This document shows positions 1 to 32,000 of a DNA stretch of 32,000 nt, piece after piece. The stretch is from NCBI GenBank assembly GCA_045599485.1, contig JAZRWA010000086.1, forward strand, positions 60,039 to 92,038, read 5' to 3'. The notes below the pieces were generated by a model. The model did not search any database. It saw nothing but the letters and a program-made list of their open reading frames with translations, and had not been told where the DNA came from. Position 1 is the stretch's first letter; the number at the start of each line of letters is the position of its first letter. Source of the stretch: Clostridia bacterium (GTDB lineage: Bacteria; Bacillota; Clostridia; Christensenellales; Aristaeellaceae). The translations under genes were made by a program, and so were the position numbers.

Positions 1-340
1 GCAGGGCATCCTGCCGCTGCAGCTGACTGATGGGATCTTCAAGAGATTGGTTCGTGACCATTGTCAGGACGCGTTCCTGCAATCCCTGGCGATCCAGATA
101 GGCGGCGGTCTTTTTTTCGTTTGCCCGAAAAACAAACAGATATAAGAAAAAAAAAGTGATCAATGCGGCGGCTGTGCCGGCAGCGAGTGGGATGACAGGC
201 TGGCGCGCGGCTGTCAGCAGCCGATAACCCAGCAATGTGACTGCGGCAACAGCTGCTCCGCTGACTGCGGCCAGCGCTGCGCAGCGCAGCAATGCCTGCC
301 GGTTCAGCCGCTTTTGAAAAGGAATCAGTGCTTTGATCAA
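1..340 (-). CDS. hypothetical membrane protein, N-terminal part only (gene runs off the left edge)
   Basis: Open frame to position 1. TTG at 340-338 (complement) lies 9 nt after AAGGAGG (complement of 350-356). The product LIKALIPFQKRLNRQALLRCAALAAVSGAAVAAVTLLGYRLL...AAGTAAALITFFFLYLFVF has two hydrophobic segments. The tabulated ORF 39..398 is a different frame with Arg/Ser/Cys-rich junk composition. Confidence 0.45.
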   Translation of the reverse strand, partial: MIKALIPFQKRLNRQALLRCAALAAVSGAAVAAVTLLGYRLLTAARQPVIPLAAGTAAALITFFFLYLFVFRANEKKTAAYLDRQGLQERVLTMVTNQSLEDPISQLQRQDAL

Positions 341-673
341 CCGAACGGGCCTCCTTTGGTACGCAGATGGGTTGAATAAGAGAAAAAACAGGATGCACTG
401 CCCTGCAGCAGTGGCAGAATACCCTCTGATTATCTGCAAAAAATGTGCCAAAATGAAGGAAAAAGGGGCTGACGGCCCAAGATTATTTTTTATAGGAAGA
501 TAAACTTTTCCGGATTGGTGTTCGCAAGCTTTTTGAAAGAAACAGAATGAAACGAAATGCTATCAATTGAAACTGATTCGATGTATAATAGCATCACGAC
601 GGTTTTGACGTGTCATGCTGCATGCAGCTTCCAAACATTCTTGAAATTTTTTTGAAACAAAACGGAATACAGA

Positions 674-689
674 TGGCACGGTATTTGCA
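674..689 (+). promoter_or_regulatory. sigma-54 (-24/-12) promoter in front of the activator gene
   Basis: TGGCACGgtatTTGCA matches TGGCACG-N4-TTGCW exactly, with GG and GC 12 nt apart. It lies about 70 nt upstream of ATG 760. Confidence 0.7.
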
Positions 690-759
690 TAGGAGAAAAG
701 TAAGCCCCCAAGGGCTGCGTTTGGATGTGCCGGACCTGTGATCCGGCTTTGGAGGAAAC

Positions 760-2679
760 ATGGTTCACATTGATTTTGCGCTGCCGTCCCCAACGATGAT
801 CCCTTTTGTCAAACAGGCCTGGTCCATGCATAATGAGGTCTTCGGTCCTCGTCTGTATGGGCTCGATTATCGGTATACCGTGGAATGTGAGATTTCACCC
901 ACGATTATTCTGGCCAAGCATTTCAAGGCGGATGTCGTTGTCAGCCGCGGCGGTACCGCTGCCAGTATCCGCAATCAGAATCCGATGACACCGATCGTGG
1001 AGATCCCCATCACCGCCAATGATTTGCGTTTGTCCATCCGGCAGGCGGTGGAACGCTATGGCGATATGCCCATCGGCGTGGTTGGAACGGCCAATATGAC
1101 ATGCTGCGTGGATTATCTGGGTGCGGAGTTCCCCTTTCCCGTGATGGCGTTTACGACACCGGATATTGCTCGGGATAATCTGCGGGAGGGGGTACAGGAA
1201 GCCATTCGCAGCGGCGCAAAGATGATCATCGGCGGCTTTTATACCATGGAGTTTGCCAAGGAGTTCGGTGTGCCGAGCGGTCTGCTGACTTCGTCGGCGG
1301 AATCGATTTTTTTGGCCATCACCGAGGCCAAGCGTCTTGCACAGGTCTTTCTGGCGGAACGTGAATCCTCCGCGGCCAATCGCGCTGTGCTGAACCATGT
1401 CAGCGATGGCATCATTGCAGTCGATCAGAACGGTGTGGTGCGTGCCTTTAACCCGGCGGCAGAGGCATTGCTTGGCCGCAAGAGCAGCGAAATGGTCGGA
1501 CGCCCGACCGAAAAGGTATTGCCGGATGGAAACCTGCTCAATCTTCTGAATTATAACAAGCCTTTCAGCGATGAAGTGGTGCGCATCAACGGCGAATACA
1601 TCCGCATGAACGGCAGCAAAATGATGGATGCGGATCGTCAGCTGGGGACAGTCATCACCATGCGCAGGGTACGGGAAAACAATGTGGTCAGCGGCAATAT
1701 GACCGGCAACCGCAGTGAAAAAACCAACAAGGCAAAGTATCATTTCCGCGATATTCTGGGAGAAAGTATCGTTTTGCAGGATATGATCCATCAGGCGCGC
1801 CAGTATGCAAAGGTGGATTCCAACATTCTGCTGTATGGTGAGACCGGTACCGGCAAGGAGCTGGTGGCGCAGTCCATTCACAACGAAAGTGAGCGCGCGG
1901 ACCGCCCGTTTGTGGCGGTCAACTGCGCGGCGATCTCACCGTCATTGTTTGAAAGTGAGCTGTTTGGTTATGTCGGCGGTGCCTTTACCGGTGCCAGCAA
2001 GAACGGCAAGGCGGGCTTTTTCGAGTCGGCGCACACCGGCACCATTTTTCTGGATGAAATCAGCGAAATTCCCCTGGAAATGCAGACAAGGCTGCTGCGC
2101 ATCATTCAGGAGCGAGAGGTGCGCCGTATCGGCAGCGACAAGGTGATCGAGGTGGATGTGCGCATCATCTGTGCCACCAATAAGGATCTGACCCAACTGA
2201 TCGCGCAGAACAAATTCCGTGAGGACCTGTATTACCGTCTCAAGGTGCTGTCCATCAATCTTCCCCCGCTGCGCAGCCGGGAAGGCGATGCCGCGCTGAT
2301 CATGCAGCATTATCTCAATTATTACGCGGCAAAATTCGGCAAAACGGAGATTCGTCTTTCCCCGGATGCTGCCACACTGGTCGGACATTATCCCTGGCCG
2401 GGCAACCTGCGTGAACTGCGCAATGTCTCCGAGCAGCTGGCGGTGTTGTGCTCGACAACCTATATTACACTGAGCGATGTAAAAAATGTGTTGCCGCAAA
2501 AGGAAGCGCCTCAGGAGACGGCGGCCGTTGCGGCCCCGGTGATGTCACTGCGGGAGAAAGAACGCCAGAAAATCCTGGATACGCTGCTGATCGCCAATAC
2601 CAAAAAAGAGGCGGCCAGTATGCTGGGCCTCAGTAAAACGACCCTGTGGAGAAAGATCCGCGAGTACGGAATCGAGTGA
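760..2679 (+). CDS. sigma-54-dependent transcriptional activator (PrpR_N-like sensor + PAS + AAA+ + Fis-type HTH)
   Basis: Walker A GETGTGKE, sigma-54 contact loop GGAFTGA, ESELFGY, and C-terminal HTH KKEAASMLGLSKTTLWRKIREYGI. The N-terminus VVVSRGGTAASIR is PrpR_N-like and SDGIIAVDQNGVVRAFNPAAEALLG is PAS-like. GGAGGAaacATG start; TGA stop. Confidence 0.95.
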   Translation: MVHIDFALPSPTMIPFVKQAWSMHNEVFGPRLYGLDYRYTVECEISPTIILAKHFKADVVVSRGGTAASIRNQNPMTPIVEIPITANDLRLSIRQAVERYGDMPIGVVGTANMTCCVDYLGAEFPFPVMAFTTPDIARDNLREGVQEAIRSGAKMIIGGFYTMEFAKEFGVPSGLLTSSAESIFLAITEAKRLAQVFLAERESSAANRAVLNHVSDGIIAVDQNGVVRAFNPAAEALLGRKSSEMVGRPTEKVLPDGNLLNLLNYNKPFSDEVVRINGEYIRMNGSKMMDADRQLGTVITMRRVRENNVVSGNMTGNRSEKTNKAKYHFRDILGESIVLQDMIHQARQYAKVDSNILLYGETGTGKELVAQSIHNESERADRPFVAVNCAAISPSLFESELFGYVGGAFTGASKNGKAGFFESAHTGTIFLDEISEIPLEMQTRLLRIIQEREVRRIGSDKVIEVDVRIICATNKDLTQLIAQNKFREDLYYRLKVLSINLPPLRSREGDAALIMQHYLNYYAAKFGKTEIRLSPDAATLVGHYPWPGNLRELRNVSEQLAVLCSTTYITLSDVKNVLPQKEAPQETAAVAAPVMSLREKERQKILDTLLIANTKKEAASMLGLSKTTLWRKIREYGIE

Positions 2680-2777
2680 AAACCTGCTGTATCCGATTGA
2701 AACCATATGAACAACAACGCACCGCGGTGAAAACAAAAACGGAAATACAGCGTCGCGAACCCATTTGAACGCAATTA

Positions 2778-2820
2778 GGACAGCAAAACCATGCTCTGGT
2801 GTTGCCGTCCTTTACTATTT
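2778..2820 (+). terminator. possible intrinsic terminator after the activator gene
   Basis: Imperfect stem GGACAGCAA (2778-2786) / TTGCCGTCC (2802-2810) with a long 15-nt loop, followed by T-rich tttactattttcatt. Confidence 0.35.
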
Positions 2821-3147
2821 TCATTCTCAATAGCTGTTAATAAATCACAAACAGTGTTTGAAATGTTCAAAAAGTTTCAAAACATTTCAACTGGTATCAA
2901 CTGGCACGATGACGAAACACAATGAAACGAGCGGAAGCAACCGGATTGAAACAGTCAATGAACCGTTTCGATTCCGTTGGAGAGGCTGCGGTACTTTTTT
3001 CCTTTTTGAAACGTGCGGCGGAGCTGAAAGCAGAGTTCCGGAAAACAATATTTCAGCGATTTGCTTTTGCATATATAATGTATGTTCATTTTGCATAGCA
3101 GGGAAAATGAAAAAAACTGAAAGATAATTTTACTTGAATCTCTTTTT

Positions 3148-3163
3148 TGGCACGCTTTTCGCT
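3148..3163 (+). promoter_or_regulatory. sigma-54 (-24/-12) promoter driving the MBL-fold gene
   Basis: TGGCACGctttTCGCT has GG and GC at the correct 12-nt spacing with one mismatch in the -12 box (TCGC for TTGC). It lies 125 nt upstream of ATG 3289 at the end of an AT-rich spacer, next to a sigma-54 activator gene. Confidence 0.6.
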
Positions 3164-3288
3164 ATTAAGTATGACAGAAGCATTTCCGGTTCTTCCGGAG
3201 ATGGGAAATCAGTTCAGTGCTCACGGCCGGTGCTGATGCCTGAAAAGAAAAGTTGGCCGGAGAATACAGAAAGAGAGAGGAACCCAAC

Positions 3289-4431
3289 ATGAAGAAGATC
3301 GCTTCTATCCTCCTGTGCGTGCTGCTGATCTGCGTTGCCGCTCTGGCTGTCGCTGAATCCGCGCCCGCCACCAGCACCTGGGGCTGGGTCGTGACCCCCG
3401 CCACGGTGGATGAGAACGGCTGCGTGACCGTCGAGATCGTCGAAGCCGCCACCTTCGAGAAGAAGACCTTCACCACCGAACCCCTGACCGTGACCAATGC
3501 CCTGACCGGCGTTACCCGCGCTGAAGCGGTGGTCGCCCTGTGCCAGGCCGACAACAGCATTGAGCTCGTCATGGACGCCGAAGGCAAGGTCATCAACATT
3601 GAACGCCTGATGCAGATGGCCGGCGGCTTTGGCCCCTCCATCGGCTTTATGGACTCTGCCAAGTACGGCGTTGAGCTGACCGGCGAGGGCGGCAAGCCCG
3701 GTGCCATGATGGCTCAGGCCTGGGTGCTGGCGACTGATTCCGACGCCCGCACCATCACCGTGGGCGACGGCAACCACTGCACCAACATCTTCGAAGAGAC
3801 CTACACCCTGGCCGATGACTGCCAGATCTTCGCTGTGGACAATACCACCACCGTTGAAGGTACTCTGGTGACCGGCAGCTGGGCCGGTGAACCCACCACC
3901 CTGGAAGAGATCGTTGTCTGCCCCGTGGGCGAAGACGGCGAGATCTACTACCAGCCCGAAAAGTACGTTGTGATCGCCGTGTTCGACGGTGATTACACCA
4001 CCTACGAGACCGCCAAGGTCGCTCAGCTGTATGTGTACAAGAACCCCGAAGTGCTGGCTGCCAGCAAGCTGGTGACCCCCGACAACACCACCTACGACGG
4101 TGTGGCCTGGATGCCCGCTGTGTCCGCTGCTGTTGAAAAGCATCAGTATGGTTTTGACGGCTCCTGCCTGCCCTTCGAAGTGATGGCCGATCGTTTCTAC
4201 TCCATCGGCGATTCCTACACCAATGTTTATCTGTTCGTCGGCGACGACGGCACCATGACCCTGCTGGACCAGGGCAACACCTGCGCCTCCTACCAGTACT
4301 GGCTGAACCTGGAAGCCATGGGCTTCGATCCCCGTGAAGTGGATAAGATCCTGCTGACCCACGGCCATGGCGACCACTATCAGGCTCTGGTTGAGAACCT
4401 GACCATGATCAACCACTATCAGGTGGGTTAG
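3289..4431 (+). CDS. secreted metallo-beta-lactamase-fold protein, part 1 (ends at in-frame TAG 4429-4431)
   Basis: SD agagagagg sits 8 nt before ATG 3289. Signal peptide MKKIASILLCVLLICVAALAVA. MBL motif THGHGDH at 4357-4377. The frame continues directly into 4432..5604 after a single TAG. Confidence 0.85.
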   Translation: MKKIASILLCVLLICVAALAVAESAPATSTWGWVVTPATVDENGCVTVEIVEAATFEKKTFTTEPLTVTNALTGVTRAEAVVALCQADNSIELVMDAEGKVINIERLMQMAGGFGPSIGFMDSAKYGVELTGEGGKPGAMMAQAWVLATDSDARTITVGDGNHCTNIFEETYTLADDCQIFAVDNTTTVEGTLVTGSWAGEPTTLEEIVVCPVGEDGEIYYQPEKYVVIAVFDGDYTTYETAKVAQLYVYKNPEVLAASKLVTPDNTTYDGVAWMPAVSAAVEKHQYGFDGSCLPFEVMADRFYSIGDSYTNVYLFVGDDGTMTLLDQGNTCASYQYWLNLEAMGFDPREVDKILLTHGHGDHYQALVENLTMINHYQVG

Positions 4432-5604
4432 GGCAACATCGCCTACGGCGAGCAGTATGCTGCTGTGCAGACCTCCGGCAACAACAAGGGCGGCTTCGAT
4501 TACCTCGGCTACCCCGAAATCGGCCCCGTGCTGACCGACAAGTCCATCTCCTACACCCTGACCGCTTGGGACACCTGGTATGAGTGGCAGAACGACTTCG
4601 GCGGCGGCGTTGAAGTGTATCCCTTCCTGACCACCGGTCATACCGCTGATACCGCTTCTTTCGTGTTCCGTCTCACCGCTACCGAAAACGATAAGGTTCT
4701 GGAAGCCGGCAAGACCGCTGCCTTCTGCTACATGGGCGGCTACGGCGCACAGAACAACCTGAAGTCCGGTTGGACCCGTCTGGCTTATGTGGATGGCCTG
4801 AAGTACATCCAGAGCGTTGCCGCTCCCATGGCCGCCGCTTCTGCTGACTACGTGTACAACGTTCCCCAGCACTCCAACCAGTATCCCTGGTACGATATTG
4901 CCAAGGCCTGCCAGGAGAAGAACATTCCCTTCCTGTCCGTGCTGACCGAGGGCCTGGACGCCATCCAGAACTTCTGCGAGAAGCGCATCTCCTACAACAC
5001 CTATGAGAACTTCTATCAGGCTTGGCTGAACGAGACCGACGAAGTGGGCAACCTGTTCTTCGAGCATGGCGGCTTCCGCTCCTCCATCTCCTCCAAGACC
5101 CTGCAGACCATCGAGGCCGGCGGTCCCTATAAGCGTGCTGAAGGCACCTATGAGCTGGAAGTTGTGGATGCCACCATCCTGCACGGCTTCGATATGTGGC
5201 AGAACCCCTCCGAGGAGTTCGCCGGCATGTACAACATCTACGGTTTCGAACTCTCCGAAGGTTTCGTCATCCCCAAGGATGCCTTCGTGCATGATCCCGA
5301 CAGCTACTTTGTGCAGATCGTCGGCCATGTGAAGGATGACTACGCCGGCAAGGTCGATTATGACACCAACTTCTTCGGTGCTGATAACTATGCTGTGCAG
5401 TGGACCAGCGGCCCCGTTGAAATTGCCAACCGTCCTACCGATTCCGCCTGGACCGAGATCGTCCGCACCACCCGCGTGAGCACTCTGGAAGAGGCTCAGG
5501 CTCTGCTGGATGCCATCGAGATCGGCAGCACCTACACCGTCCAGCTGGACAAGGTCAGCGACATCGTTGTGGCTGAAACTCCCGCTGCTACCTTCGTGAA
5601 GTAA
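4432..5604 (+). CDS. continuation of the same MBL-fold reading frame after the TAG (part 2; pseudogene half or read-through product)
   Basis: Same frame as 3289..4431. It contains the rest of the MBL domain (TTGHTADT with His at 4639-4641, CYMGGYG, PQHSNQ). There is no SD and the first possible start is GTG 4465. Codon bias matches part 1; TAA stop. Confidence 0.75.
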   Translation, partial: GNIAYGEQYAAVQTSGNNKGGFDYLGYPEIGPVLTDKSISYTLTAWDTWYEWQNDFGGGVEVYPFLTTGHTADTASFVFRLTATENDKVLEAGKTAAFCYMGGYGAQNNLKSGWTRLAYVDGLKYIQSVAAPMAAASADYVYNVPQHSNQYPWYDIAKACQEKNIPFLSVLTEGLDAIQNFCEKRISYNTYENFYQAWLNETDEVGNLFFEHGGFRSSISSKTLQTIEAGGPYKRAEGTYELEVVDATILHGFDMWQNPSEEFAGMYNIYGFELSEGFVIPKDAFVHDPDSYFVQIVGHVKDDYAGKVDYDTNFFGADNYAVQWTSGPVEIANRPTDSAWTEIVRTTRVSTLEEAQALLDAIEIGSTYTVQLDKVSDIVVAETPAATFVK

Positions 5605-5620
5605 TTCACCCGTATCCTTT

Positions 5621-5655
5621 GGAGCCGTGGCCCGCAGGGCCGCGGCTCCTTTTAT
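5621..5655 (+). terminator. intrinsic terminator of the MBL-fold gene
   Basis: 13-bp stem GGAGCCGTGGCCC / GGGCCGCGGCTCC (one G:U pair), loop GCA, then TTTTAT. Confidence 0.7.
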
Positions 5656-5661
5656 GTCCGG

Positions 5662-5700
5662 AAACAATAACAAAGGACGGCGGAATATCTTCCGTCGTCC
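5662..5700 (-). terminator. intrinsic terminator of mtnN (minus strand)
   Basis: 11-bp stem GGACGGCGGAA (5675-5685) / TTCCGTCGTCC (5690-5700) with one wobble pair. On the minus strand it is followed by TTTGTTATTGTTT. Confidence 0.55.
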
Positions 5701-5720
5701 TGTTCGTATATTTGATTGGA

Positions 5721-6410
5721 TTATTCCTGTGCCAACGCTTCCAGCAGCGCGGCGGCAGCGCTTGCGGCGGCTTGAGCGGCACTGACTTCATTGCGCTCGA
5801 AGGAATCCATGCCGCTTTCGTCACCGGTATCGCTCATGGCGCGGATGGCCATGAAGGGGATACCGTTGGCAAAGCAGGCATGGGCTGCGGCAGCGGATTC
5901 CATATCCACGCACAGCGGATGCCATGCGTCAATGATCAGCTGGCGACCTTCCTGCACAATGAACTGCTCTCCGCTGACCATGGTGCCGAAGAAAGCGGGG
6001 TAGAGCAGTTTGCCTTCGTCGTTCAGACGGCGGCAAATGCCCAGCATTTTTTCATCGCCGGGGAAATATCCGGCATCGGGCACGGGGCGGTAACGCAGCA
6101 TGCCGGGGTCGACATCGTGCTGTGCCAGACGCTCGGAAAAAGCCAGCGCATGCACGCCAAGGCGTGGATCCATACCGCCGGCGACGCCCACCATGATGAT
6201 GCGGTCCACCTGCCAGCGGTCGATCAGCAGCTGGGCGGTAATGGCAGCGTTCACCTTGCAGATGCCGGTGGCGGCGGCCACGATGTGCAATTTGCCGATA
6301 TGCGCCTCCATGATGGTGGTACGGGCAATTTCGGTTTCCTTTTCGATGGTCAGGTGGGCGATGACCGATTCGATCTCGGATTTCATCGCGCAAAGCAGGC
6401 CGATGGTCAT
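5721..6410 (-). CDS. mtnN: 5'-methylthioadenosine/S-adenosylhomocysteine nucleosidase
   Basis: MTIGLLCAMKSEIE...GICKVNAAITAQLLI...MVGVAGG...VSGEQF...CVDMESAAAAH...AIRAMSD is typical of the Pfs/MtnN family. AAGAGG SD; TAA stop. Confidence 0.9.
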   Translation of the reverse strand: MTIGLLCAMKSEIESVIAHLTIEKETEIARTTIMEAHIGKLHIVAAATGICKVNAAITAQLLIDRWQVDRIIMVGVAGGMDPRLGVHALAFSERLAQHDVDPGMLRYRPVPDAGYFPGDEKMLGICRRLNDEGKLLYPAFFGTMVSGEQFIVQEGRQLIIDAWHPLCVDMESAAAAHACFANGIPFMAIRAMSDTGDESGMDSFERNEVSAAQAAASAAAALLEALAQE

Positions 6411-6434
6411 ACAAATACCTCTTATCTCAATGGT

Positions 6435-7247
6435 TTATTGGTCGGGCTCCAGGTCGGCTCCGGGCATGACGGCCACCGTGCGGATCTTGCGGGCGGCGGC
6501 GGCACGCATCAGAGCGGTCTGTGCCGGTATGCTGCTGAAAATGTTGGCGGAGATGTGTTCCACGCCGTGGGGGCGCAGCTGCTCGGCTGCGGCGCCGATG
6601 ATGGCCTTGGCAAAGCCCTGACGGCGGTAATCGGCGCGTACATACAGACCTACCAGAGAGACGGAGTCTCCCTGACCGGCCAGAAGCACCTCGCTGACTG
6701 GATTCACGCCGCGGTAAAAGCCGAGGGCGCAGAAATGCTCCATCTGCATGCAGCGGATCATGGTGTTCATGTCCAACGTTTCGATACGGTAAGCATTGAG
6801 ACGCTGCATAAAGGCCATGGCGTCTTCCTGACTGCGCAGCGTGACCGGCAGCAGATTGCAGCTGACCGGCACACGGGAGGACCAGGCGGGCAGTTCAAAA
6901 TGCCACACATCCTGCGTGTCATCGGCCTTGAAGCCGGCTTTTTCGTAGAAGGAAAGCAGGTCGGCGTCTTCCGGCGATACAATGGTATACAGACGCGCGC
7001 GCAGACCAGGGGCCTCGGCTCTCATTTCCTCGGCACGCGCCAGCAGCGCGCCCAGCAGCAGACTGCGGGCGGCGGGCTGCGCCTCGATGGAAATAAAGAT
7101 GCGCAGCGGGGCGTTGGGATACATTTCGCCCTGCATAAAGCTGATGACCGTACCGGTGCCCATCGGCACCTGCTGATCATTGGAGACGATAAAGCAATTA
7201 CGGGGATCCAGACCCTGATAGGGGCCGATGGGATGTGAAAGCTGCAT
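6435..7247 (-). CDS. GNAT-family N-acetyltransferase (apparently two GNAT-like halves)
   Basis: Acetyl-CoA motif RRQGFAKAIIGAAAEQL in the C-terminal half and YEKAGF in the N-terminal half. Start moved to ATG 7247 (GAGGAActgatttcATG) rather than the table start at 7274. Confidence 0.8.
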   Translation of the reverse strand: MQLSHPIGPYQGLDPRNCFIVSNDQQVPMGTGTVISFMQGEMYPNAPLRIFISIEAQPAARSLLLGALLARAEEMRAEAPGLRARLYTIVSPEDADLLSFYEKAGFKADDTQDVWHFELPAWSSRVPVSCNLLPVTLRSQEDAMAFMQRLNAYRIETLDMNTMIRCMQMEHFCALGFYRGVNPVSEVLLAGQGDSVSLVGLYVRADYRRQGFAKAIIGAAAEQLRPHGVEHISANIFSSIPAQTALMRAAAARKIRTVAVMPGADLEPDQ

Positions 7248-7280
7248 GAAATCAGTTCCTCTGTGGCGGCGCAAAACGGC

Positions 7281-8735
7281 TTACTGCCATTCCACGCGGC
7301 CGGTCGTTTCGGAAGCGGTCAGATCGTAGAGCACATGCTCGACCTCGGGACGGTCGTGCAGGATGCGCATCGTCACACGCTCCAGCAGGTCGGAGGGCAG
7401 ACGGGCGGGATAATACTGCTGTGCGCCCTCGCCGATGTTGACGGCTTTCAGCACGATGACGGAGCGGGCGGAGCTGCCGGGCAGCTCCATCAGCAGGCAG
7501 AAGTGCTGCCGAACACGCTTCAGCTGTCCGGCGGCGTTCAATTCATCGGTAAAGATGGCGTCGGCGGCTCGCAGCGTCTGCAGACGGGCGGGCGTGACCT
7601 CACCCAGTACGCGCAGTGCCAGACCGCTTCCCGGGAAGGTCTGTTTGACCACCACCTCGGCGGGCATGCCCATGTAGGAGCCTGCTTCGCGCACTTCGCT
7701 TTTGAACAGTTCACGCAGGGGCTCAATGCGGGGCAGATCGGGATAGATGACGGGACGCTTGTTTTTGTCAGTGCCGTTCATCACTTCGGTGCAGATGGTG
7801 CCGCGGATCACACAGCTGAACTGACCAAGGTCCGCCAGAGTTTCATCCAGCACGCGCTGCAGCATATCACCGATGATCGCCTTTTTTTCCTGAGGATCGC
7901 GCACGCCCTTCAGCGCCTGCAGGAAGCGATCTTCCGCGTGCACATGGCAGATGTTCAGCCCCATCTGATCACGGTAGAAGGTCAGGAATTTTTCACCTTC
8001 CCGGTCACGCATCAGACCGGTGTCAATAAAGATGCACTGGAGGCGGTCGCCCAGCGCCTTGTGCGCCAGCAGCGCGCTGACGCCGCTGTCCAGACCGCCC
8101 GTCATGGAGCAAAGGGCACGGCCGTTGCCGACCTTGCCTCGGATCTCCTCCACCGCGCCCTGCACAAAGGCCTCGTAATCCCACCAGCGGCTGCAGCCGC
8201 ATACGCCGGTCACAAAGCTCATCAGCAGCGACATGCCGTCGGTATCATTGGATTCCATGGTGTACTGCATGCCGTACAGCTGACGGGCGGCGTCGGCAAA
8301 GCCGATGACCTCGTCCTCGCATTCGGCAATCTGTTCCACCCCGGCCGGCAGGCGCAGACGCCGCACGGCAGATAACAGGCGGTCGCAATCCTCCAGATTC
8401 CCGGTCAGGGGAGAGGACAGAAAACGCACGTGGCCGATCTTGTCGCACAGCGCGGTCTGCTGCACCTCAGCACCCAGTGCCCGGGCAAGCGGTACGGCGG
8501 CGGCACCCAAGGCCAGCACAGGCAGCTGACAGGCAGTTGGGTCAAAAGCCGGTTCCGCGGCGGCGCCGGCGGGGGCGCCGGACAGGATCAACCCCATTGG
8601 GGCCGCGGCGGCAATTTCGTTTTTGGTGACGGAGGCGGATACAATGCGGCAGTAAATGCGCTCCGCCCTCAGACTGCGCGCGATGGCGCGGCTGGAGCTG
8701 TCGTCAAAATTGATGATCAGAACCATGTCCTGCAT
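7281..8735 (-). CDS. GMP-synthase-like ATP pyrophosphatase with a degenerate glutamine-amidotransferase domain
   Basis: PP-loop TGGLDSGV, PFPG-like TFPGSGLALRVLGEVT and C-terminal GRVEWQ follow the GuaA layout. The N-terminal GATase-like region lacks the nucleophile Cys (PVLALGAAAV) and the His of the triad (YGMQYTME). GGGAGG SD. Confidence 0.85.
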   Translation of the reverse strand: MQDMVLIINFDDSSSRAIARSLRAERIYCRIVSASVTKNEIAAAAPMGLILSGAPAGAAAEPAFDPTACQLPVLALGAAAVPLARALGAEVQQTALCDKIGHVRFLSSPLTGNLEDCDRLLSAVRRLRLPAGVEQIAECEDEVIGFADAARQLYGMQYTMESNDTDGMSLLMSFVTGVCGCSRWWDYEAFVQGAVEEIRGKVGNGRALCSMTGGLDSGVSALLAHKALGDRLQCIFIDTGLMRDREGEKFLTFYRDQMGLNICHVHAEDRFLQALKGVRDPQEKKAIIGDMLQRVLDETLADLGQFSCVIRGTICTEVMNGTDKNKRPVIYPDLPRIEPLRELFKSEVREAGSYMGMPAEVVVKQTFPGSGLALRVLGEVTPARLQTLRAADAIFTDELNAAGQLKRVRQHFCLLMELPGSSARSVIVLKAVNIGEGAQQYYPARLPSDLLERVTMRILHDRPEVEHVLYDLTASETTGRVEWQ

Positions 8736-12504: not shown

Positions 12505-12535
12505 CACTTTTGACGATCATGATCGGAGAGAATCA

Positions 12536-13414
12536 GTGAGCTATCAGATCATTACCGATACATCGGCCAACCTGCCTTCCTCCTATCTGCTGGAGCACGG
12601 CGTGGATATCGCCCCCTTCTCCTATTTTGTGGAGGGCGTTGAAATGCAGTGCCTGAACAGCACGGTATTTGACGGCAAAAAGTTTTATGACGATATGCGG
12701 GCCGGCATGAAGGTGACCACCTCCCAGATCAATCCGCAGACCTTTGAGGAATGCTTTGAGAAGTATCTGTCCCAGGGTCAGGACGTGCTGTTTATCTCCA
12801 TGTCCTCCGGCATCAGCGGCTCCTATAACTCTTCCATGATCGCCGCGGAGGCGCTTAAGGAAAAGTATCCGGAGCGGAAGATCGTATCCATCGATACCCG
12901 CGCCGCGTCCCTCGGCGAGGGCATTTCGGTCATGCTGGCGGTAAAAAACCGCGACAACGGCATGTCCATTGCCGATAACGAGGCTTTCCTGCGTGATCTG
13001 GTGCAGCATGTCTATCAGGTGTTTACGGTGGATGACCTGAAATACCTCAGTCACACGGGCCGTCTTCACAGCGCGGTGGCGTTTGTCACCTCCATGCTCA
13101 ATATCAAGCCTTTGCTCAAGGGCGATGAAATGGGCCGGATCGTCAACTTCGGTATTGTACGCGGCCGCAAAAAGGCTGTTCAGTCGCTGGCCCAGAAGTA
13201 TGATGAGCTGGTGGAAAAGCCCGGAGAGCAGACCGTTTGCATCGCGCATGCCGACTGTGCGGCCGAAGCCGCGCAGCTGGCGGAATTGCTGCGCCGCAAC
13301 CATCCGCCCCGGGAGATCATGACCGTCGATTATGAGCCGGTGACGGGCAGCCATGTGGGCCCCGGCACCATCGCTCTCTTCTTCCTTGGCGGGGAAAACG
13401 TGCGCGAAAAGTAA
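12536..13414 (+). CDS. DegV-family fatty-acid-binding protein
   Basis: MSYQIITDTSANLP...TSQINP...ISMSSGISGSYNS...HADC...GSHVGPGTIALFF is the DegV signature layout. GTG start 5 nt after GGAGAG. Confidence 0.9.
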   Translation: MSYQIITDTSANLPSSYLLEHGVDIAPFSYFVEGVEMQCLNSTVFDGKKFYDDMRAGMKVTTSQINPQTFEECFEKYLSQGQDVLFISMSSGISGSYNSSMIAAEALKEKYPERKIVSIDTRAASLGEGISVMLAVKNRDNGMSIADNEAFLRDLVQHVYQVFTVDDLKYLSHTGRLHSAVAFVTSMLNIKPLLKGDEMGRIVNFGIVRGRKKAVQSLAQKYDELVEKPGEQTVCIAHADCAAEAAQLAELLRRNHPPREIMTVDYEPVTGSHVGPGTIALFFLGGENVREK

Positions 13415-13471
13415 TACAAACAGTCCCTCAGGGCAAAAGACCTGAGGGGCTTCCACTGTATGGAGGATAAA

Positions 13472-14152
13472 ATGATTGCCGCAATTGTAAATGCCGCTGT
13501 GATTATCCTGGGCTCCCTCGTGGGATTGCTGCTGCACGGCAAACTGCCCGAGCGCTATAACGATGCCATCTCCAAGGGCCTGGGCCTGTGCACGGTGGTG
13601 ATCGGCCTCAGCACGGCGCTGAAGACCGCCAACATGCTGATCGTCATCATCTCGGTGGCGGTGGGCGGCTTTATCGGCTGCTTCATCGATATTGAAAAAT
13701 GGCTGGGCCGTCTGGGAACGACCATTGAAAACCGCTTCAGCAAGGGCGAGGAGGGCAGCTTTGCCAAGGGCTTTGTGACGGCTTCGCTGCTGTACTGTGT
13801 GGGCGCCATGGCCATTGTGGGCTCGCTGGACGCCGGCCTTCGCGGCGATTACAGCACCATCTTTGCCAAGTCCGTGCTGGACGGCGTGATGGCCATCTTT
13901 CTGACGGGCAGCTGCGGCATCGGCGTCATGGCCTCCGCGGTCACGGTACTGGTGTATCAGGGCTTTATCACCTTGCTGGCCGGAGCGGTAGAACCTGTGC
14001 TGACCGCGGCGGTGGTGACCGAAATGAGCGCGGCCGGCGGTGTGCTTATCATGGGCATCGGTCTCAACCTGATCCGCAAGGAGCACATTCCCGTGGGCAA
14101 CCTGCTGCCGGCTGTGCTGCTGCCTGTTGTGCTGACGGGGCTTTTTCTGTGA
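13472..14152 (+). CDS. DUF554-family membrane protein
   Basis: MIAAIVNAAVIILGSLVGLLL... is polytopic and Gly/Ala-rich, resembling YdfK/YqgA. Start moved to ATG 13472 (GGAGGAtaaaATG). Confidence 0.8.
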   Translation: MIAAIVNAAVIILGSLVGLLLHGKLPERYNDAISKGLGLCTVVIGLSTALKTANMLIVIISVAVGGFIGCFIDIEKWLGRLGTTIENRFSKGEEGSFAKGFVTASLLYCVGAMAIVGSLDAGLRGDYSTIFAKSVLDGVMAIFLTGSCGIGVMASAVTVLVYQGFITLLAGAVEPVLTAAVVTEMSAAGGVLIMGIGLNLIRKEHIPVGNLLPAVLLPVVLTGLFL

Positions 14153-27055: not shown

Positions 27056-28177
27056 TTACAGCTGCCGGAGATATCCGGACAGGGCATTCAGGCCGCCTTT
27101 GAGCGTTTCGGTATCGCAGGCGTAGCCCATGCGGAAGCAGTATTCCTCTTCAAAGCAATCACCGGGGGTGACAAGCGCGCCTGTCGCTTTGTACAGGCCT
27201 TCGCAGAACTGATAGGAAGGGATGCGGGGCGTGTAGTCGATCAGGGCGGTGGTACCGGCGGACGGCTTGACATAGCTGACCTTGCTTTCGGTCTGTACCC
27301 AACGGTCGAGCAGCGCCAGATTATCGCGGATAATGCCCCGGTTGCGGGTCAGCAGGGTGTCCTTGTGGCGCAGCGCCACCGCGCCGATGGCTTCATCCAG
27401 CATGCCGCAGGAGATCATGTTGTAATCGCGGTGACTCAGGCAGGCATGGCGGACGGACGCGTCATGCGTGGCGATCCAGCCCAGACGCAGACCGGCCAGG
27501 GAAAACACCTTGGACATGCTGCCAATGGAAATGCCTTTTTCGTACAGGTCGGCCACGGAAGGGGAATAATCCTCCGATTGGGTCAGGTGACGGTAGACCT
27601 CATCGCACATCAGCCATGCGTCCGCCTTGCGGGCAATGTCAATGATCTCCGTCAGCATCTCCGGCGGCATCAGCGCGCCGGAGGGATTGTTGGGATTGTT
27701 GATGCAGATCAGCTTTGCGCCGCCTTCGGCCAGCCTGCGCAGCTCCTCCATATCGGGCAGAAAGTCGTTTTCACGGCGCAGCTTCAAAATGCGCACATCG
27801 GCGCCATAGGACTCGGGAATGGAATACAGCTGCTGATAGGTGGGCATCACGCTGATGACCTTGTCGCCGGGCTCGATCAGCGAATAAAAAATGTGGTGAT
27901 TGGCGCCGGCTGCACCGTGGGTGGTGATGATCTCTTCCGCTTTGAGCGTCGTATAAAGCGAGGTTACGCCGACACGGAAATCCTCCCGTCCGACGATCTC
28001 ACCGTAGGTCAGACGGCGGGCGGAAAAAGCATTCAGAAAAGCGTTTTTATCCTCTCCGGCCAGGGCAAACAATTCGTCCAGAGAGACGGAATCCACACAG
28101 GTTTCGGCAATGTTCCAGACAGCGCCGTCTTCCCAGGCGTTCATCCATTCTTCCACTTTAAAGGGCTTGATGTTCAT
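27056..28177 (-). CDS. pyridoxal-phosphate-dependent aminotransferase (class I/II)
   Basis: NPNNPSG, and SMSKVFSLAGLRLGW (PLP-lysine motif). The ~370-aa size fits. Confidence 0.9.
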   Translation of the reverse strand: MNIKPFKVEEWMNAWEDGAVWNIAETCVDSVSLDELFALAGEDKNAFLNAFSARRLTYGEIVGREDFRVGVTSLYTTLKAEEIITTHGAAGANHHIFYSLIEPGDKVISVMPTYQQLYSIPESYGADVRILKLRRENDFLPDMEELRRLAEGGAKLICINNPNNPSGALMPPEMLTEIIDIARKADAWLMCDEVYRHLTQSEDYSPSVADLYEKGISIGSMSKVFSLAGLRLGWIATHDASVRHACLSHRDYNMISCGMLDEAIGAVALRHKDTLLTRNRGIIRDNLALLDRWVQTESKVSYVKPSAGTTALIDYTPRIPSYQFCEGLYKATGALVTPGDCFEEEYCFRMGYACDTETLKGGLNALSGYLRQL

Positions 28178-28258
28178 AAACAGGAACCTTTCTTTTGTAA
28201 AAAATGTACAATTTGTAAATTCGACGCCAAAAGGGGGAATCCTGCAAAAAAGTCAGCC

Positions 28259-28295
28259 TTGACAAGGATGTTTTTAACTTGTATATTGTATACAA
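28259..28295 (+). promoter_or_regulatory. sigma-70-type promoter of the gntR-pepF-fhs unit with an overlapping palindromic operator
   Basis: TTGACA (28259-28264), 17-nt spacer, TATATT (28282-28287). The perfect inverted repeat TTGTATA-ttg-TATACAA (28279-28295) overlaps the -10. Confidence 0.5.
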
Positions 28296-28317
28296 AGCAA
28301 AATGCGGAGGTTTTTTT

Positions 28318-28995
28318 ATGCGTCAGGAAAGCTTTGAACTGGTGGAGGAAAACAAGCCCATCCGGGATGTAGCGTATGAAACGCTCAAGCACGCGATCAT
28401 TACGGGCAAGCTTCCCGCCGGGGCGCACATTGTGGAAACAGCTTATGCCGAACAGCTGCACATCAGCCGCACACCGCTGCGTGAAGCGCTGCGCCGGCTG
28501 GAGCACGACGGCCTGGTGACGTATGAAGTTCGCCGCGGCGTAGTGGTGCGGGCCTTTACCATTGAGGATGTGGAAGAGATCTTTATGATCCGCAACGCCA
28601 TGATGATGCTGATCCTGCCTTCCATTGTGGAGAGGGTCACCGAAAAAGACCTGAAGGAGATGCGGGAGATCCTGTCGGATATGGACATTGCCATGGCGGA
28701 AGGGGATTGCGAGGCCATTGCCTCCTTTAACCGTGCTTTCCACAGCAAGATGGAACACCTGACCGACAAGAACCGCATCCTGCGTGTGATCGAGGATCAG
28801 GAAGAATACATCACCCGCTTTTCGGCCATTACGATTTCCAATATCCAGCGCAGGGAGGGCGCGCATCAGGAGCACCATCAGATTGTGGAGCTGCTGGAAA
28901 AGCGTGACCTGGAGGGACTGCGCGCGCTGATGGCGCATCATTTGCAGGAAAGCAGGGAAACCTGCCTTGCTGCGGTAAAAAAACACGTTTTCTGA
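28318..28995 (+). CDS. GntR-family transcriptional regulator (FadR/FCD-type C-terminal domain)
   Basis: Winged HTH AYETLKHAIITGKLPAGAHIVETAYAEQLHISRTPLREALRRLEHDGLV, with a His-rich FCD-like C-terminus (FHSKMEHL, HQEHHQIVELL). Start at ATG 28318 after GGAGG. Confidence 0.9.
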   Translation: MRQESFELVEENKPIRDVAYETLKHAIITGKLPAGAHIVETAYAEQLHISRTPLREALRRLEHDGLVTYEVRRGVVVRAFTIEDVEEIFMIRNAMMMLILPSIVERVTEKDLKEMREILSDMDIAMAEGDCEAIASFNRAFHSKMEHLTDKNRILRVIEDQEEYITRFSAITISNIQRREGAHQEHHQIVELLEKRDLEGLRALMAHHLQESRETCLAAVKKHVF

Positions 28996-29009: not shown

Positions 29010-30788
29010 ATGAACTGGGATCTGTCCGTATATTATCGTGATTTTGAAGACGAAAGAATCGAAGCCGATTTTGCCGCCTGTGAAAAGCTGATTGGCGAGA
29101 TGGGAGACACGGTCAGCAAAGGCCTGTCTGCCCTGGAAACGCTGGAAAAAGAACAGGAGATCGGTGAAGAACTGGAACAGCTGTTTGGCAAGCTGGAATC
29201 CTTTGCCGAGCTGACCCTGTCGGTGGACGCCACCCATGAGGCAGCCACCCGCCTGTCCGACCGCTGCACACAGATGGCGGTGGGGCTGCAGCTGGCATCC
29301 TCGGCGCTGACCCGCTATGTGGGACAGCTTTCCGAGGAGGAGCTGGAAAAGCTGATCGCCTCTTCCGAAAAGCTGACGGCCTGCGCCTTCAGCCTGCGCC
29401 GTATGCGGGAGGAGGCTGCCCATCTGCCGGACGAACAGATCCAGGAGTGGCTGCTCAATATGTCCATCAACGGCGCGCAGGCCTTTGCACAGCTGCGCGG
29501 CAAGCTGGATGCAACGCTCAGCGTGGATTACCGGGATGAAAAGCTGCCCCTGTCCGCCGTGCGGGCCAAGGCAGAGGATGCCGATGCCGATGTGCGCCGT
29601 GATGCCTACCTGGCGGAGCTGGCGGCGTACCCCAAGATCGAGCATTCCATGGCTGCCTGCCTCAACGCCATCAAGGGCGAAGGCCTGACCATGATCAAGG
29701 CGGAGCATTTTGACTCCATCCTCGATCAGACGTTGTTCAACTCCAACATGGACCGGGAAACGCTGGAAGCCATGTGGACGGCCTGCCGGGAGTTTTTCCC
29801 CGCCTTCCGCCGCTATCTGCGCAAAAAGGGCGAGCTGCTGGGCTATCACAACGGTCTGCCTTTCTTTGGTCTGTTTGCGCCTGTTTCCATCGGTGAGGGC
29901 AGCGGCAAGGTCTATACCGTGGAGGAAGCCCGTCAGATCCTGATCCGCGAGCTGGGCAAGTTTACCCCCGAGATGGCGGAGTTCATCGACAATGCCTTTG
30001 AGCAGCGCTGGATCGATATGTTCCCGCATGACGGTAAAAGCGGCGGTGCTTTCTGTGCCGGCGTTCCCCACTGCGAGCAGAGCCGTGTGCTGACCAACTT
30101 TGCCGGCAGCCTTGGCGATGTCAGCACGCTGGCGCATGAACTGGGCCACGCGTGGCATAATTACTGCATGAAGGATCTGCCGCTGTGCATGCGCCATGAG
30201 CCCATGCCGCTGGCGGAGACCGCATCCATCTTCAACGAAACGCTGCTGGCCAATGCCCTGCGCGAGAGCGCGGACAAGGCCGAGCGCTTCATGCTGATCG
30301 AAAACAGCCTGCAGAACTCCACGCAGGTGATCGTGGATATCTATTCCCGCTATCTGTTTGAGACCGCTGTGATCGAGGGACGCAAGACGCACACTCTCTC
30401 GGCGGAAGAACTGAAGAAGCTGATGCTGGAGGCGCAGGAGCAGTCCTACGGTGACGGTCTGGACCCCGAATACCGCCATCCCTATATGTGGGCCTGCAAG
30501 AGCCATTACTATTCTCCGGGGCTGAGCTTCTACAATTTCCCCTACGCGTTCGGTCTGCTCTTCGGTCTGGGCGTATATGCCCTGTACCGCGAGAAGGGCA
30601 GCGCGTTTGTGCCGGATTATAAAAAGCTGCTGCGTTCCTGCGGCAGCGGCATGGTGGCCGATGTAGCGGCCTCCGTGGGCATCAATGTACGCGATCCCGA
30701 ATTCTGGCGTTCCTCCCTGCGCGTGGTGGAGGACGAGATTGAACAGTTTGTTTCCATGGCTGATGAATATTTGAAGGAGCGTAAATGA
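29010..30788 (+). CDS. pepF: M3-family oligoendopeptidase F
   Basis: HELGHAWH zinc motif with a downstream E ligand region. The ~590-aa size and overall layout fit PepF. GGAGGAG SD. Confidence 0.9.
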
Positions 30789-32000
30789 CGATGATGACCG
30801 ATCTTGAAATTGCCCAGGCCGCGAAGATCCGCCCCATTACCGAAATTGCCGAGGCGATGGACCTGAATGAAGAAAGCCTTTCCGCCTATGGCCGTTATAT
30901 TGCCAAGGTGGACCCCAAGTATTACCGCGAACTGCCGCAGAAGGGCAAGCTGGTGCTGGTCACCGCGCTGACGCCCACCGCGGCGGGCGAGGGCAAGACC
31001 ACCGTCAGCATTTCGGTGGCCGACGGCATGCGCAAGAACGGCAAAAACGCCGTGCTGGCGCTGCGTGAGCCCTCTCTGGGACCGGTGTTTGGCATGAAGG
31101 GCGGCGCCGCCGGCGGCGGCTATGCCCAGGTGCTGCCGATGGAAAACATCAATCTGCATTTTACCGGTGACCTGCATGCCATCACCGCCGCCAACAACCT
31201 GCTGGCGGCCATGGTGGATAACCACATCCAGCAGGGCAACAAGCTGGGCATCGATCCCCGCCGTGTCGTTTTCCGCCGCTGCATGGACATGAATGACCGT
31301 CAGCTGCGCCAGCTGCTCAGCGGCATCGGCGGCAAGGGCAACGGTATGCCCCGCGAGGATGGTTTTGACATCACCGCGGCCTCCGAGATCATGGCGTCCT
31401 TCTGCATGGCCGATGACCTGATGGACATGAAGGCACGCATGGGCCGCATCGTGGTTGCCCGCACCTTTGAGGATAAGCCCGTGACCTGTGCCGATATCGG
31501 CGCCCAGGGTGCCATGACTGCGCTGCTGCGCGATGCCATGATGCCCAACTTGGTGCAGACCATTGAAGGCACTCCCTGCCTGATGCACGGCGGCCCCTTC
31601 GCCAACATTGCCCACGGCTGCAACAGTGTGGCGGCGACCAAGCTGGCCCTCAAGCTGGGCGACTATGTGGTGACCGAAGCGGGCTTCGGTGCCGATCTGG
31701 GTGCCGAAAAGTTCATTGACATCAAGTGCCGTGCCGCGGGCATTTATCCCTCCTGCGTGGTGCTGGTGGCGACTATCCGCGCCCTCAAATATCACGGCGG
31801 CGTGACCAAGGATCAGCTGAATAACGAAAACGTGGAAGCCATGCTGCAGGGCTGCGGCAACCTCTTCCGTCATATGGACAACATTACCGGCGTGTGGAAT
31901 GCGCCTGTGGTGGTGGCCATCAACCGCTTCTATACCGACAGCGAAAACGAGATCGCCGCGCTGAAGAAGGCTATTGAGGATCGAGGCGCCGCCTGCGCGC
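30785..32000 (+). CDS. fhs: formate--tetrahydrofolate ligase, N-terminal ~405 codons (runs off the right edge)
   Basis: [22 protein letters not shown]..., [38 protein letters not shown] and [14 protein letters not shown] are canonical Fhs motifs. ATG 30785 overlaps the pepF stop (ATGA). It is absent from the ORF table because it has no stop in the window. Confidence 0.95.

Follow-up and report, generated by a model that had tools for sequence, protein, structure and literature searches.

Does a TAG codon in the middle of an otherwise intact bacterial gene end its translation, or is it read as an amino acid? This question is raised by a gene for a secreted protein of the metallo-beta-lactamase (MBL) fold in a Clostridia bacterium (Aristaeellaceae; GenBank assembly GCA_045599485.1, contig JAZRWA010000086.1, forward-strand positions 60,039 to 92,038). 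We analysed this stretch of 32,000 nucleotides, referred to below as the window (G+C content, 58%). From an ATG at 3289 to a TAA at 5602-5604, the gene forms one frame of 771 codons, and its sole interruption is a TAG at 4429-4431, codon 381 (CAG GTG GGT TAG GGC AAC ATC). A table of open reading frames (ORFs) gives it as two entries in the same frame, 3253..4431 and 4465..5604, the second opening at a GTG. By "the genus" we mean the window's organism together with the species of assembly GCA_024404275.1, both uncultured animal-gut Clostridia. We lean towards the view that TAG is translated in this genus, probably as glutamate by means of a suppressor tRNA, so that the MBL gene would be functional. 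Decoding is favoured because in-frame stops that are TAG only recur in many intact genes of the genus, where TAG never serves as a terminator.

The position of the TAG matters for the protein. The first part of the gene (3289..4428, forward strand, codons 1-380) encodes a signal peptide, an N-terminal domain without a Pfam match and the start of the MBL-fold domain, which carries H358-x-H360-x-D362-H363 within THGHGDH (residues 357-363, nucleotides 4357-4377; the HxHxDH motif is H358-H363). Pfam Lactamase_B (PF00753) matches residues 307-364, in this first part only (E = 2.4e-9, 37.9 bits against a cut-off of 22.7), and the second part on its own gave no family match in Pfam. That second part (4432..5604, forward strand, codons 382-771 and the final TAA) encodes the remainder of the MBL domain and a C-terminal domain. 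Residues H358, H360, D362, H363, H451 and H528 are invariant in 27 homologues. Since His451 (4639-4641) and His528 (in PQHSNQ) both lie 3' of the TAG, a product of 380 residues would miss part of the metal site. Judged by the HxHxDH motif and the downstream histidine ligands, the predicted product is a member of the metallo-beta-lactamase fold superfamily; in a profile search of the PDB the best matches were the B3 enzymes GOB-18 and AIM-1, with coverage of the first motif region only. A split gene restarting at the GTG at 4465 was ruled out: there is no Shine-Dalgarno sequence, the metal ligands would fall on two chains, and all homologues are single-chain. Elsewhere in the window, about 29 other genes or gene parts have no in-frame stop and no frameshift. 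An earlier, sequence-only reading of this stretch had described a single frame split only by the TAG, a catalytic domain cut by it, a second part with merely a GTG start that lacks a Shine-Dalgarno sequence, and a gene free of any further stop or frameshift; this description of the gene and its stop was confirmed throughout.

We then compared the gene with its relatives. The initial protein search gave no homologue above 63% identity, and the nearest orthologue, 94% identical in amino acids, emerged only from a scan of genome contigs of GTDB species representatives. It lies on contig JAKSQG010000009.1 (L001) of the metagenome-assembled genome (MAG) "Clostridia bacterium Horse_feces223", GCA_024404275.1, a horse-faeces Clostridia MAG that is also the source of L080 and of a second contig, L007. 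L001 is syntenic with the window across 17.8 kb at about 90% nucleotide identity. Its MBL orthologue runs through 771 uninterrupted codons (91.7% nucleotide identity) and has CAG (Gln) opposite the TAG, as does L080. In the other homologues of the closest subgroup the TAG column is L, K, Q or I, and it falls in an indel-rich, subfamily-specific variable loop. Full-length homologues of 780-920 amino acids are frequent in gut Clostridia, some with SLH or dockerin anchors. An AlphaFold2 model of the fused protein has a mean confidence score (pLDDT) of 66.6, falling below 50 around residues 359-435, and puts residue 381 in a low-confidence coil after a helix at 361-374; we used the model solely to state that this residue is outside any confidently predicted secondary-structure element. 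By the orthologue alignment, the TAG is a single, recent C>T change (CAG to TAG) at a non-conserved site. With CAG in the orthologue and a variable column, the TAG is neither conserved nor functionally required, and nothing here points to pyrrolysine specifically. The residue facing the TAG, which the sequence-only reading had proposed to look up, is encoded by a sense codon; this spoke against a conserved TAG and did not favour decoding at this site alone. Taken by itself, the orthologue evidence is that of one C>T nonsense change and points towards an ordinary nonsense mutation. In the horse MAG, the orthologue (L001 4879-7194) has Cys, Asp and Gly at residues 523, 532 and 534, where the window has Tyr, Tyr and Trp; Tyr523 is common to nearly all homologues, Tyr532 is found among the closest ones, and conservation is weaker at position 534. 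Either local errors in the MAG or real divergence could explain these differences, and the window copy is the more consensus-like.

The gene does not look like an old decaying pseudogene, as had been proposed from the sequence. When the gene is compared with its nearest orthologue, the ratio of nonsynonymous to synonymous divergence (dN/dS) is 0.115 for the part before the TAG and 0.127 for the part after it. All family-invariant residues are retained, and there is neither a lesion besides the TAG nor any relaxed selection, although a very recent event would look identical. Codon usage is likewise the same in both halves, with CCC in 26 of 27 Pro codons, ACC in 65 of 70 Thr codons, and AAG and CAG in all 29 Lys and all 27 Gln codons. 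As claimed earlier, this bias matches rplU and rpmA, in which Pro is exclusively CCC and Thr exclusively ACC, whereas the adjacent activator gene favours CCG (15 of 28 Pro codons). We regard the MBL gene as highly expressed.

The pattern that carries our reading comes from the sister species. Across about 85 kb of its sequence, drawn from three independent assemblies (the NCBI MAG, Logan SRR27361835 and ENA ERZ27247129), we found 11 further in-frame stops in nine otherwise intact genes: those for the sigma-54 activator, an M1 peptidase, YkuD, GntR, GNAT, an ABC ATPase, a phosphodiesterase-family protein and two membrane proteins. All 11 are TAG. In the same 85 kb there was no in-frame TAA, no in-frame TGA and no frameshift. 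The contigs outside the MAG include L081 and L082, further contigs of the genus that were reached by exact look-up of the RplU protein in other assemblies. L080, L081, L082 and L083 are 96.5-97.4% identical, so they represent strains of one species from different samples.

Most of these TAGs could be placed against a sense codon. The one in the activator gene (L001 3952) faces GAG in the window (Glu530). The divergent membrane-protein gene has three (L001 1672, 1216 and 1036, ahead of its true TAA end at 532), the first of them opposite GAA (Glu) at 74-76 of the window. The TAG of the M1 peptidase (L080 17901) faces GAT (Asp) in the window. For GNAT (L081 1942, from Logan SRR27361835) the facing codon is GAG in both the window and L080; for YkuD (L082 6413, from ENA ERZ27247129) it is GAA in the window and GAG in L080; and for GntR (L096 3839, on a second SRR27361835 contig) it is GAA in the window and in L097. 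The TAG of the membrane-protein paralogue (L007 14296) faces Glu in an approximate alignment. In the ABC ATPase gene (L007 4120) the frame goes on for 28 codons after the TAG, and in the phosphodiesterase-family gene (L096 10682) the TAG comes just before a conserved ...LILVTADHG. For seven of the TAG genes, the orthologue alignments are gapless and full-length across the TAG, at 88-98% identity. Coding potential persists on both sides of each TAG, and dN/dS downstream of it is 0.18 in the M1 peptidase and 0.11 in the activator. Once the window is included, the tally is 12 in-frame TAGs, spread over 10 genes and four independent assemblies, with only one of the 12 in the window's own genome. 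The segment at L001 1036-3954, which aligns to window positions 1-2936 and contains four of the MAG's TAGs, stands apart in its divergence: nucleotide identity is 78-80% against about 90% elsewhere, and synonymous divergence (dS) in the activator is about 0.88 against 0.2-0.5 in neighbouring genes, with the protein 90% identical. The segment may have had a separate origin, such as recombination from a more remotely related organism.

Could chance account for this pattern? With the codon usage of the window, random nonsense mutation would produce TAG in 52-59% of cases, and the probability that 10 stops out of 10 are TAG is 1.5e-3 to 5e-3, lower for 12. The residues that face TAG in the nearest orthologue are suggestive of Glu: among the eight that could be read, six are Glu, one is Asp and one is Gln, the L007 paralogue being the approximate one. 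Two of the Glu cases are GAG/TAG polymorphisms inside one species, and the expected share of GAG among the sources of new TAGs is 11-21%. A G>T mutation bias behind the GAG to TAG changes was ruled out, since it predicts as many GAA to TAA changes and none was seen. Programmed read-through had no support either: the RNA 3' of the window TAG folds no better than shuffled sequences (z = 0.58), and we found no nucleotide context common to the 12 TAGs. The sequence-only reading had offered four explanations for the window TAG, namely a very recent nonsense mutation, a base-call error, programmed read-through and decoding as an amino acid; the TAGs of the relatives favour decoding by a suppressor tRNA. 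Furthermore, of about 50 distinct genes in the genus, not one terminates with TAG. In bacteria generally, TAG makes up about 20% of stops regardless of G+C content (PMC3549826). The homologous GNAT gene ends in TAG in a sister clade (L092) and in TGA in this genus. No in-frame TAG was found in 50 kb from three sister clades, L092 and L098 (Ddl 78-81% identical) and L097 (M3 peptidase 79% identical).

If UAG is indeed translated, it would be no efficient terminator in the genus. The full-length MBL-fold protein of 771 amino acids would be made and secreted, and position 381, which lies in a variable surface loop, would hold an ordinary amino acid. A tRNA with a CUA anticodon, probably derived from tRNA-Glu and charged with glutamate, would read UAG, and release factor 1 (RF1) would be lost, weakened or outcompeted. 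A CUC to CUA anticodon change in one copy of a tRNA-Glu gene would be a one-step origin of such a suppressor, and a prior, family-wide avoidance of TAG terminators would have made the reassignment cheap. The most specific form of this proposal, in which UAG means Glu, a CUA tRNA descended from tRNA-Glu reads it, RF1 is lost or restricted, and the whole amounts to an undescribed bacterial code caught early, we put forward only tentatively. The low density of TAG and the youth of those TAGs that can be polarised would fit a reassignment that is recent or still inefficient. By analogy with phages, a suppressor borne on a prophage could be an alternative source of read-through.

Several observations weigh against translation of TAG in the genus or against its extension to the window. 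In-frame TAGs occur about once per 7 kb in the sister species and once in the 32 kb of the window; this single TAG in about 9,900 codons compares with about 5 expected at the sister-species density (Poisson P ~0.04), and the window's species may be without the trait or share it only weakly. At the window site the facing residue is Gln instead of Glu. No gene of the window is more codon-optimised than the one that carries this TAG, and a poorly decoded rare codon would cost most there. All polarisable TAGs are young; the two that are covered by more than one strain are strain-specific, and none is common to strains or species, a pattern that short-lived nonsense polymorphisms also show (PMC7918605). 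The terminator evidence is weakened by the sister clades, in which TAG ends only 1 of 39 genes. Since TAG terminators are rare there too, their absence from the genus is a family trait that does not discriminate between readings and is no proof of reassignment; on these counts the avoidance of TAG terminators seems to be older than the genus and to predate the in-frame TAGs. A tRNA scan of the window and 20 loci revealed no tRNA on the examined genus contigs, the sole hit being a tRNA-Leu(GAG) at a sister-clade locus, and prfA is not on those contigs, which are partial sequence. Finally, two large screens for alternative codes reported no bacterial TAG reassignment (PMC8629427; bioRxiv 10.64898/2026.04.02.715157), the second covering 2.7 million assemblies. 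Such screens need many aligned codons, so a codon this rare would escape them. Our own literature search found no described bacterial TAG reassignment.

How do the other explanations fare? The window TAG could be a plain nonsense mutation or polymorphism (CAG to TAG) that arose very recently in the window's strain; the protein would then stop at residue 380, short of His451 and His528, and the enzyme would be knocked out. We consider this possible but doubtful. The explanation does not depend on whether TAG is suppressed in the sister species. The loss could be neutral, or it could have been selected, for example as the shedding of an abundant secreted protein. The CAG of the orthologue in a variable column suits it, as does the presence of a single in-frame TAG in 32 kb. 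C>T is also the commonest path to TAG, accounting for 30-42% of new TAGs when transitions are favoured, and short-lived in-frame stop polymorphisms are common in bacteria (PMC7918605). Moreover, the activator gene of this regulon is itself interrupted by a TAG in the sister species; if that TAG is unsuppressed, the MBL gene would have been silenced twice, independently. What a simple nonsense mutation leaves unexplained is the set of 11 TAG-only stops in nine intact genes of the relatives, without a TAA, a TGA or a frameshift among them, and the bias of the facing residues towards Glu. If all these TAGs were null, the sister species would have lost about one in seven of its sampled genes. Selection is also not relaxed in the downstream half of the MBL gene, although no relaxation would be expected after a very recent event.

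A sequencing or assembly error, with CAG as the true codon, is improbable. Only one base separates the window from its orthologue here, and the collections hold no second assembly of the window's species as confirmation: exact look-ups of the 380-residue first half, the 379-residue second half, PNP and rpmA returned no match in them, and in JGI metagenomes neither a degenerate DNA pattern across the TAG nor a protein-seeded scan gave a match. The assembly is not noisy, however, to judge by the 29 or so undamaged genes around it. A random error would also have had to hit precisely the stop that is tolerated by relatives, and the TAGs of those relatives come from three independent assemblies. 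The idea that TAG encodes pyrrolysine by way of pylTSBCD, at selected sites or genome-wide in a manner resembling the archaeal "all TAG = Pyl" code, seems to us very unlikely. Clostridia that decode pyrrolysine do exist, a TAG that is translated and rare as a terminator is what pyrrolysine users have, and four MBL homologues carry Lys at this column. Yet in the nearest orthologues TAG faces Glu or Asp in seven of eight cases and never Lys. No methylamine methyltransferase or pyl gene was found in about 120 kb of genus sequence from partial genomes, no PYLIS-like structure lies 3' of the window TAG, and the TAG sites are young and not conserved. Weighing all of this, we find translation of UAG, probably as glutamate, to be the simplest account of in-frame codons that are all TAG, mostly face Glu, lie in intact genes under purifying selection and recur in several strains and assemblies.

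There are parallels in gut phages. Phages with code 15 (Lak, crAss-like, Garnet and Topaz) share with our genus in-frame stops that are TAG only, otherwise intact genes, life in the animal gut, a presumed CUA suppressor tRNA and TAG terminators that were rare beforehand (bioRxiv 10.1101/2021.08.26.457843). Recoding of TAG is widespread among phages of the gut, and one example is a prophage whose Oscillospiraceae host uses the standard code (same source). Here, in contrast, the TAGs are in chromosomal bacterial genes among rplU, rpmA, ddl, a murein ligase gene and lgt; they are far sparser (about 0.01-0.05% of codons) and face Glu rather than Gln; and the hosts of those phages, including the Oscillospiraceae lysogen, are reported to be on the standard code. 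The accepted bacterial stop reassignments all involve UGA (PMC8629427). In UGA to Trp (code 4) and UGA to Gly (code 25), as proposed for our genus, a stop has turned sense, is absent as a terminator and stands in frame in conserved genes, but there the codon is UGA, its use is abundant and the tRNA and release-factor changes are documented, whereas the present case concerns UAG and is sparse. Pyrrolysine decoding of UAG in bacteria and archaea, including the archaeal code (bioRxiv 10.1101/2024.09.30.615893), reads UAG as an amino acid, as we propose here, and goes with few TAG terminators; our case differs in having no link to methylamine methyltransferases and in its acidic facing residues. 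Glutamate, the amino acid proposed here for UAG, is also its meaning in the UAR to Glu codes of peritrich ciliates (code 30) and Blastocrithidia (code 31). Those are eukaryotic nuclear codes in which UAA is reassigned too, while here TAA is still the commonest terminator. To our knowledge, UAG as Glu is known only in eukaryotes, in these two codes. Amber-suppressor strains and RF1-deleted E. coli (C321.deltaA; PMC6207430) resemble the proposed state in that they tolerate in-frame UAG thanks to a CUA suppressor tRNA, whether or not RF1 is also lost, but they are engineered or laboratory-selected, and the state proposed here would be natural and lineage-wide. Short-lived stop polymorphisms (PMC7918605) resemble the TAGs in being young and strain-specific with dN/dS below 1; they differ in including all three stops at a low rate per genome, whereas here we see TAG only, in about one gene in seven, with a Glu bias.

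Should UAG prove to be translated, this would be the first stop reassignment in bacteria that involves neither UGA nor pyrrolysine. It would mean that a free-living gut bacterium reads UAG as a standard amino acid, while otherwise UAG is known to be translated only as pyrrolysine or in phages. The reassignment would be at an early stage, with the codon rare and polymorphic among strains, so that the codon-capture and ambiguous-intermediate models would become directly testable. It would also bear on the interplay between TAG-recoded phages and their Clostridia hosts. For annotation, the consequence is that gene calling under code 11 at present splits about one in seven of the sampled sister-species genes or labels it a pseudogene. 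If instead the nonsense mutation is the right explanation, the window holds a fresh knock-out of an abundant secreted MBL-fold protein, which is of merely local interest.

The surroundings of the MBL gene suggest how it is controlled. As the sequence-only reading had stated, the gene has its own sigma-54-type promoter and a strong terminator. The putative -24/-12 element at 3148..3163 (forward strand; TGGCACGCTTTTCGCT) has the form TGGCAC-N5-TCGC, with one mismatch, in the -12 element, and no sigma-70-like site was found in 2600-5800. The intrinsic terminator at 5621..5649 (forward strand) is a GC-rich hairpin with a 13-bp stem (11 GC pairs), followed by TTTTATG. Upstream, at 760..2679 on the forward strand, is the gene for a sigma-54-dependent activator with PrpR_N, PAS, AAA+ and HTH_8 domains (Sigma54_activat, E = 1e-70); it is PrdR/PrpR-like and intact in the window. 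With a putative -24 GG/-12 GC promoter and an adjacent AAA+ activator, the MBL gene fits a sigma-54-dependent gene. Across the window, six sites match the sigma-54 consensus with at most one mismatch, against 1.8 expected. Two are perfect: one at 435..450 on the reverse strand (TGGCACATTTTTTGCA), 5' of the membrane-protein gene, and one at 674..689 on the forward strand (TGGCACGGTATTTGCA), 5' of the activator gene. They stand back to back. With the MBL promoter counted in, the three sites suggest a sigma-54 regulon of three units, in which the activator regulates its own gene. The 5' part of the membrane-protein gene occupies 1..340 on the reverse strand (translation ...KALIPFQKRLNRQALLR...DRQGLQERVLTMV...) and runs out of the window. 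On L007 of the horse MAG, a second MBL-fold paralogue (5974-8622; 882 amino acids, 38% identical to that of the window) lies near the membrane-gene paralogue, so the pairing of membrane gene and MBL gene is duplicated in that genome.

Long ORFs also appear on the opposite strand of several genes. Those on the reverse strand at 12533-14086, 28174-28986, 30617-31873 and 3214-5673, up to 819 amino acids long, were dismissed as artefacts that arise because of high G+C content and strong codon bias; the true genes opposite them encode DegV, DUF554, GntR, formate-tetrahydrofolate ligase and the MBL-fold protein. A further reverse-strand gene, at 7281-8735, encodes a protein of 484 amino acids to which no Pfam domain could be assigned with confidence. 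With 95% conservation between the two species and a dN/dS of 0.055, the gene is strongly constrained.

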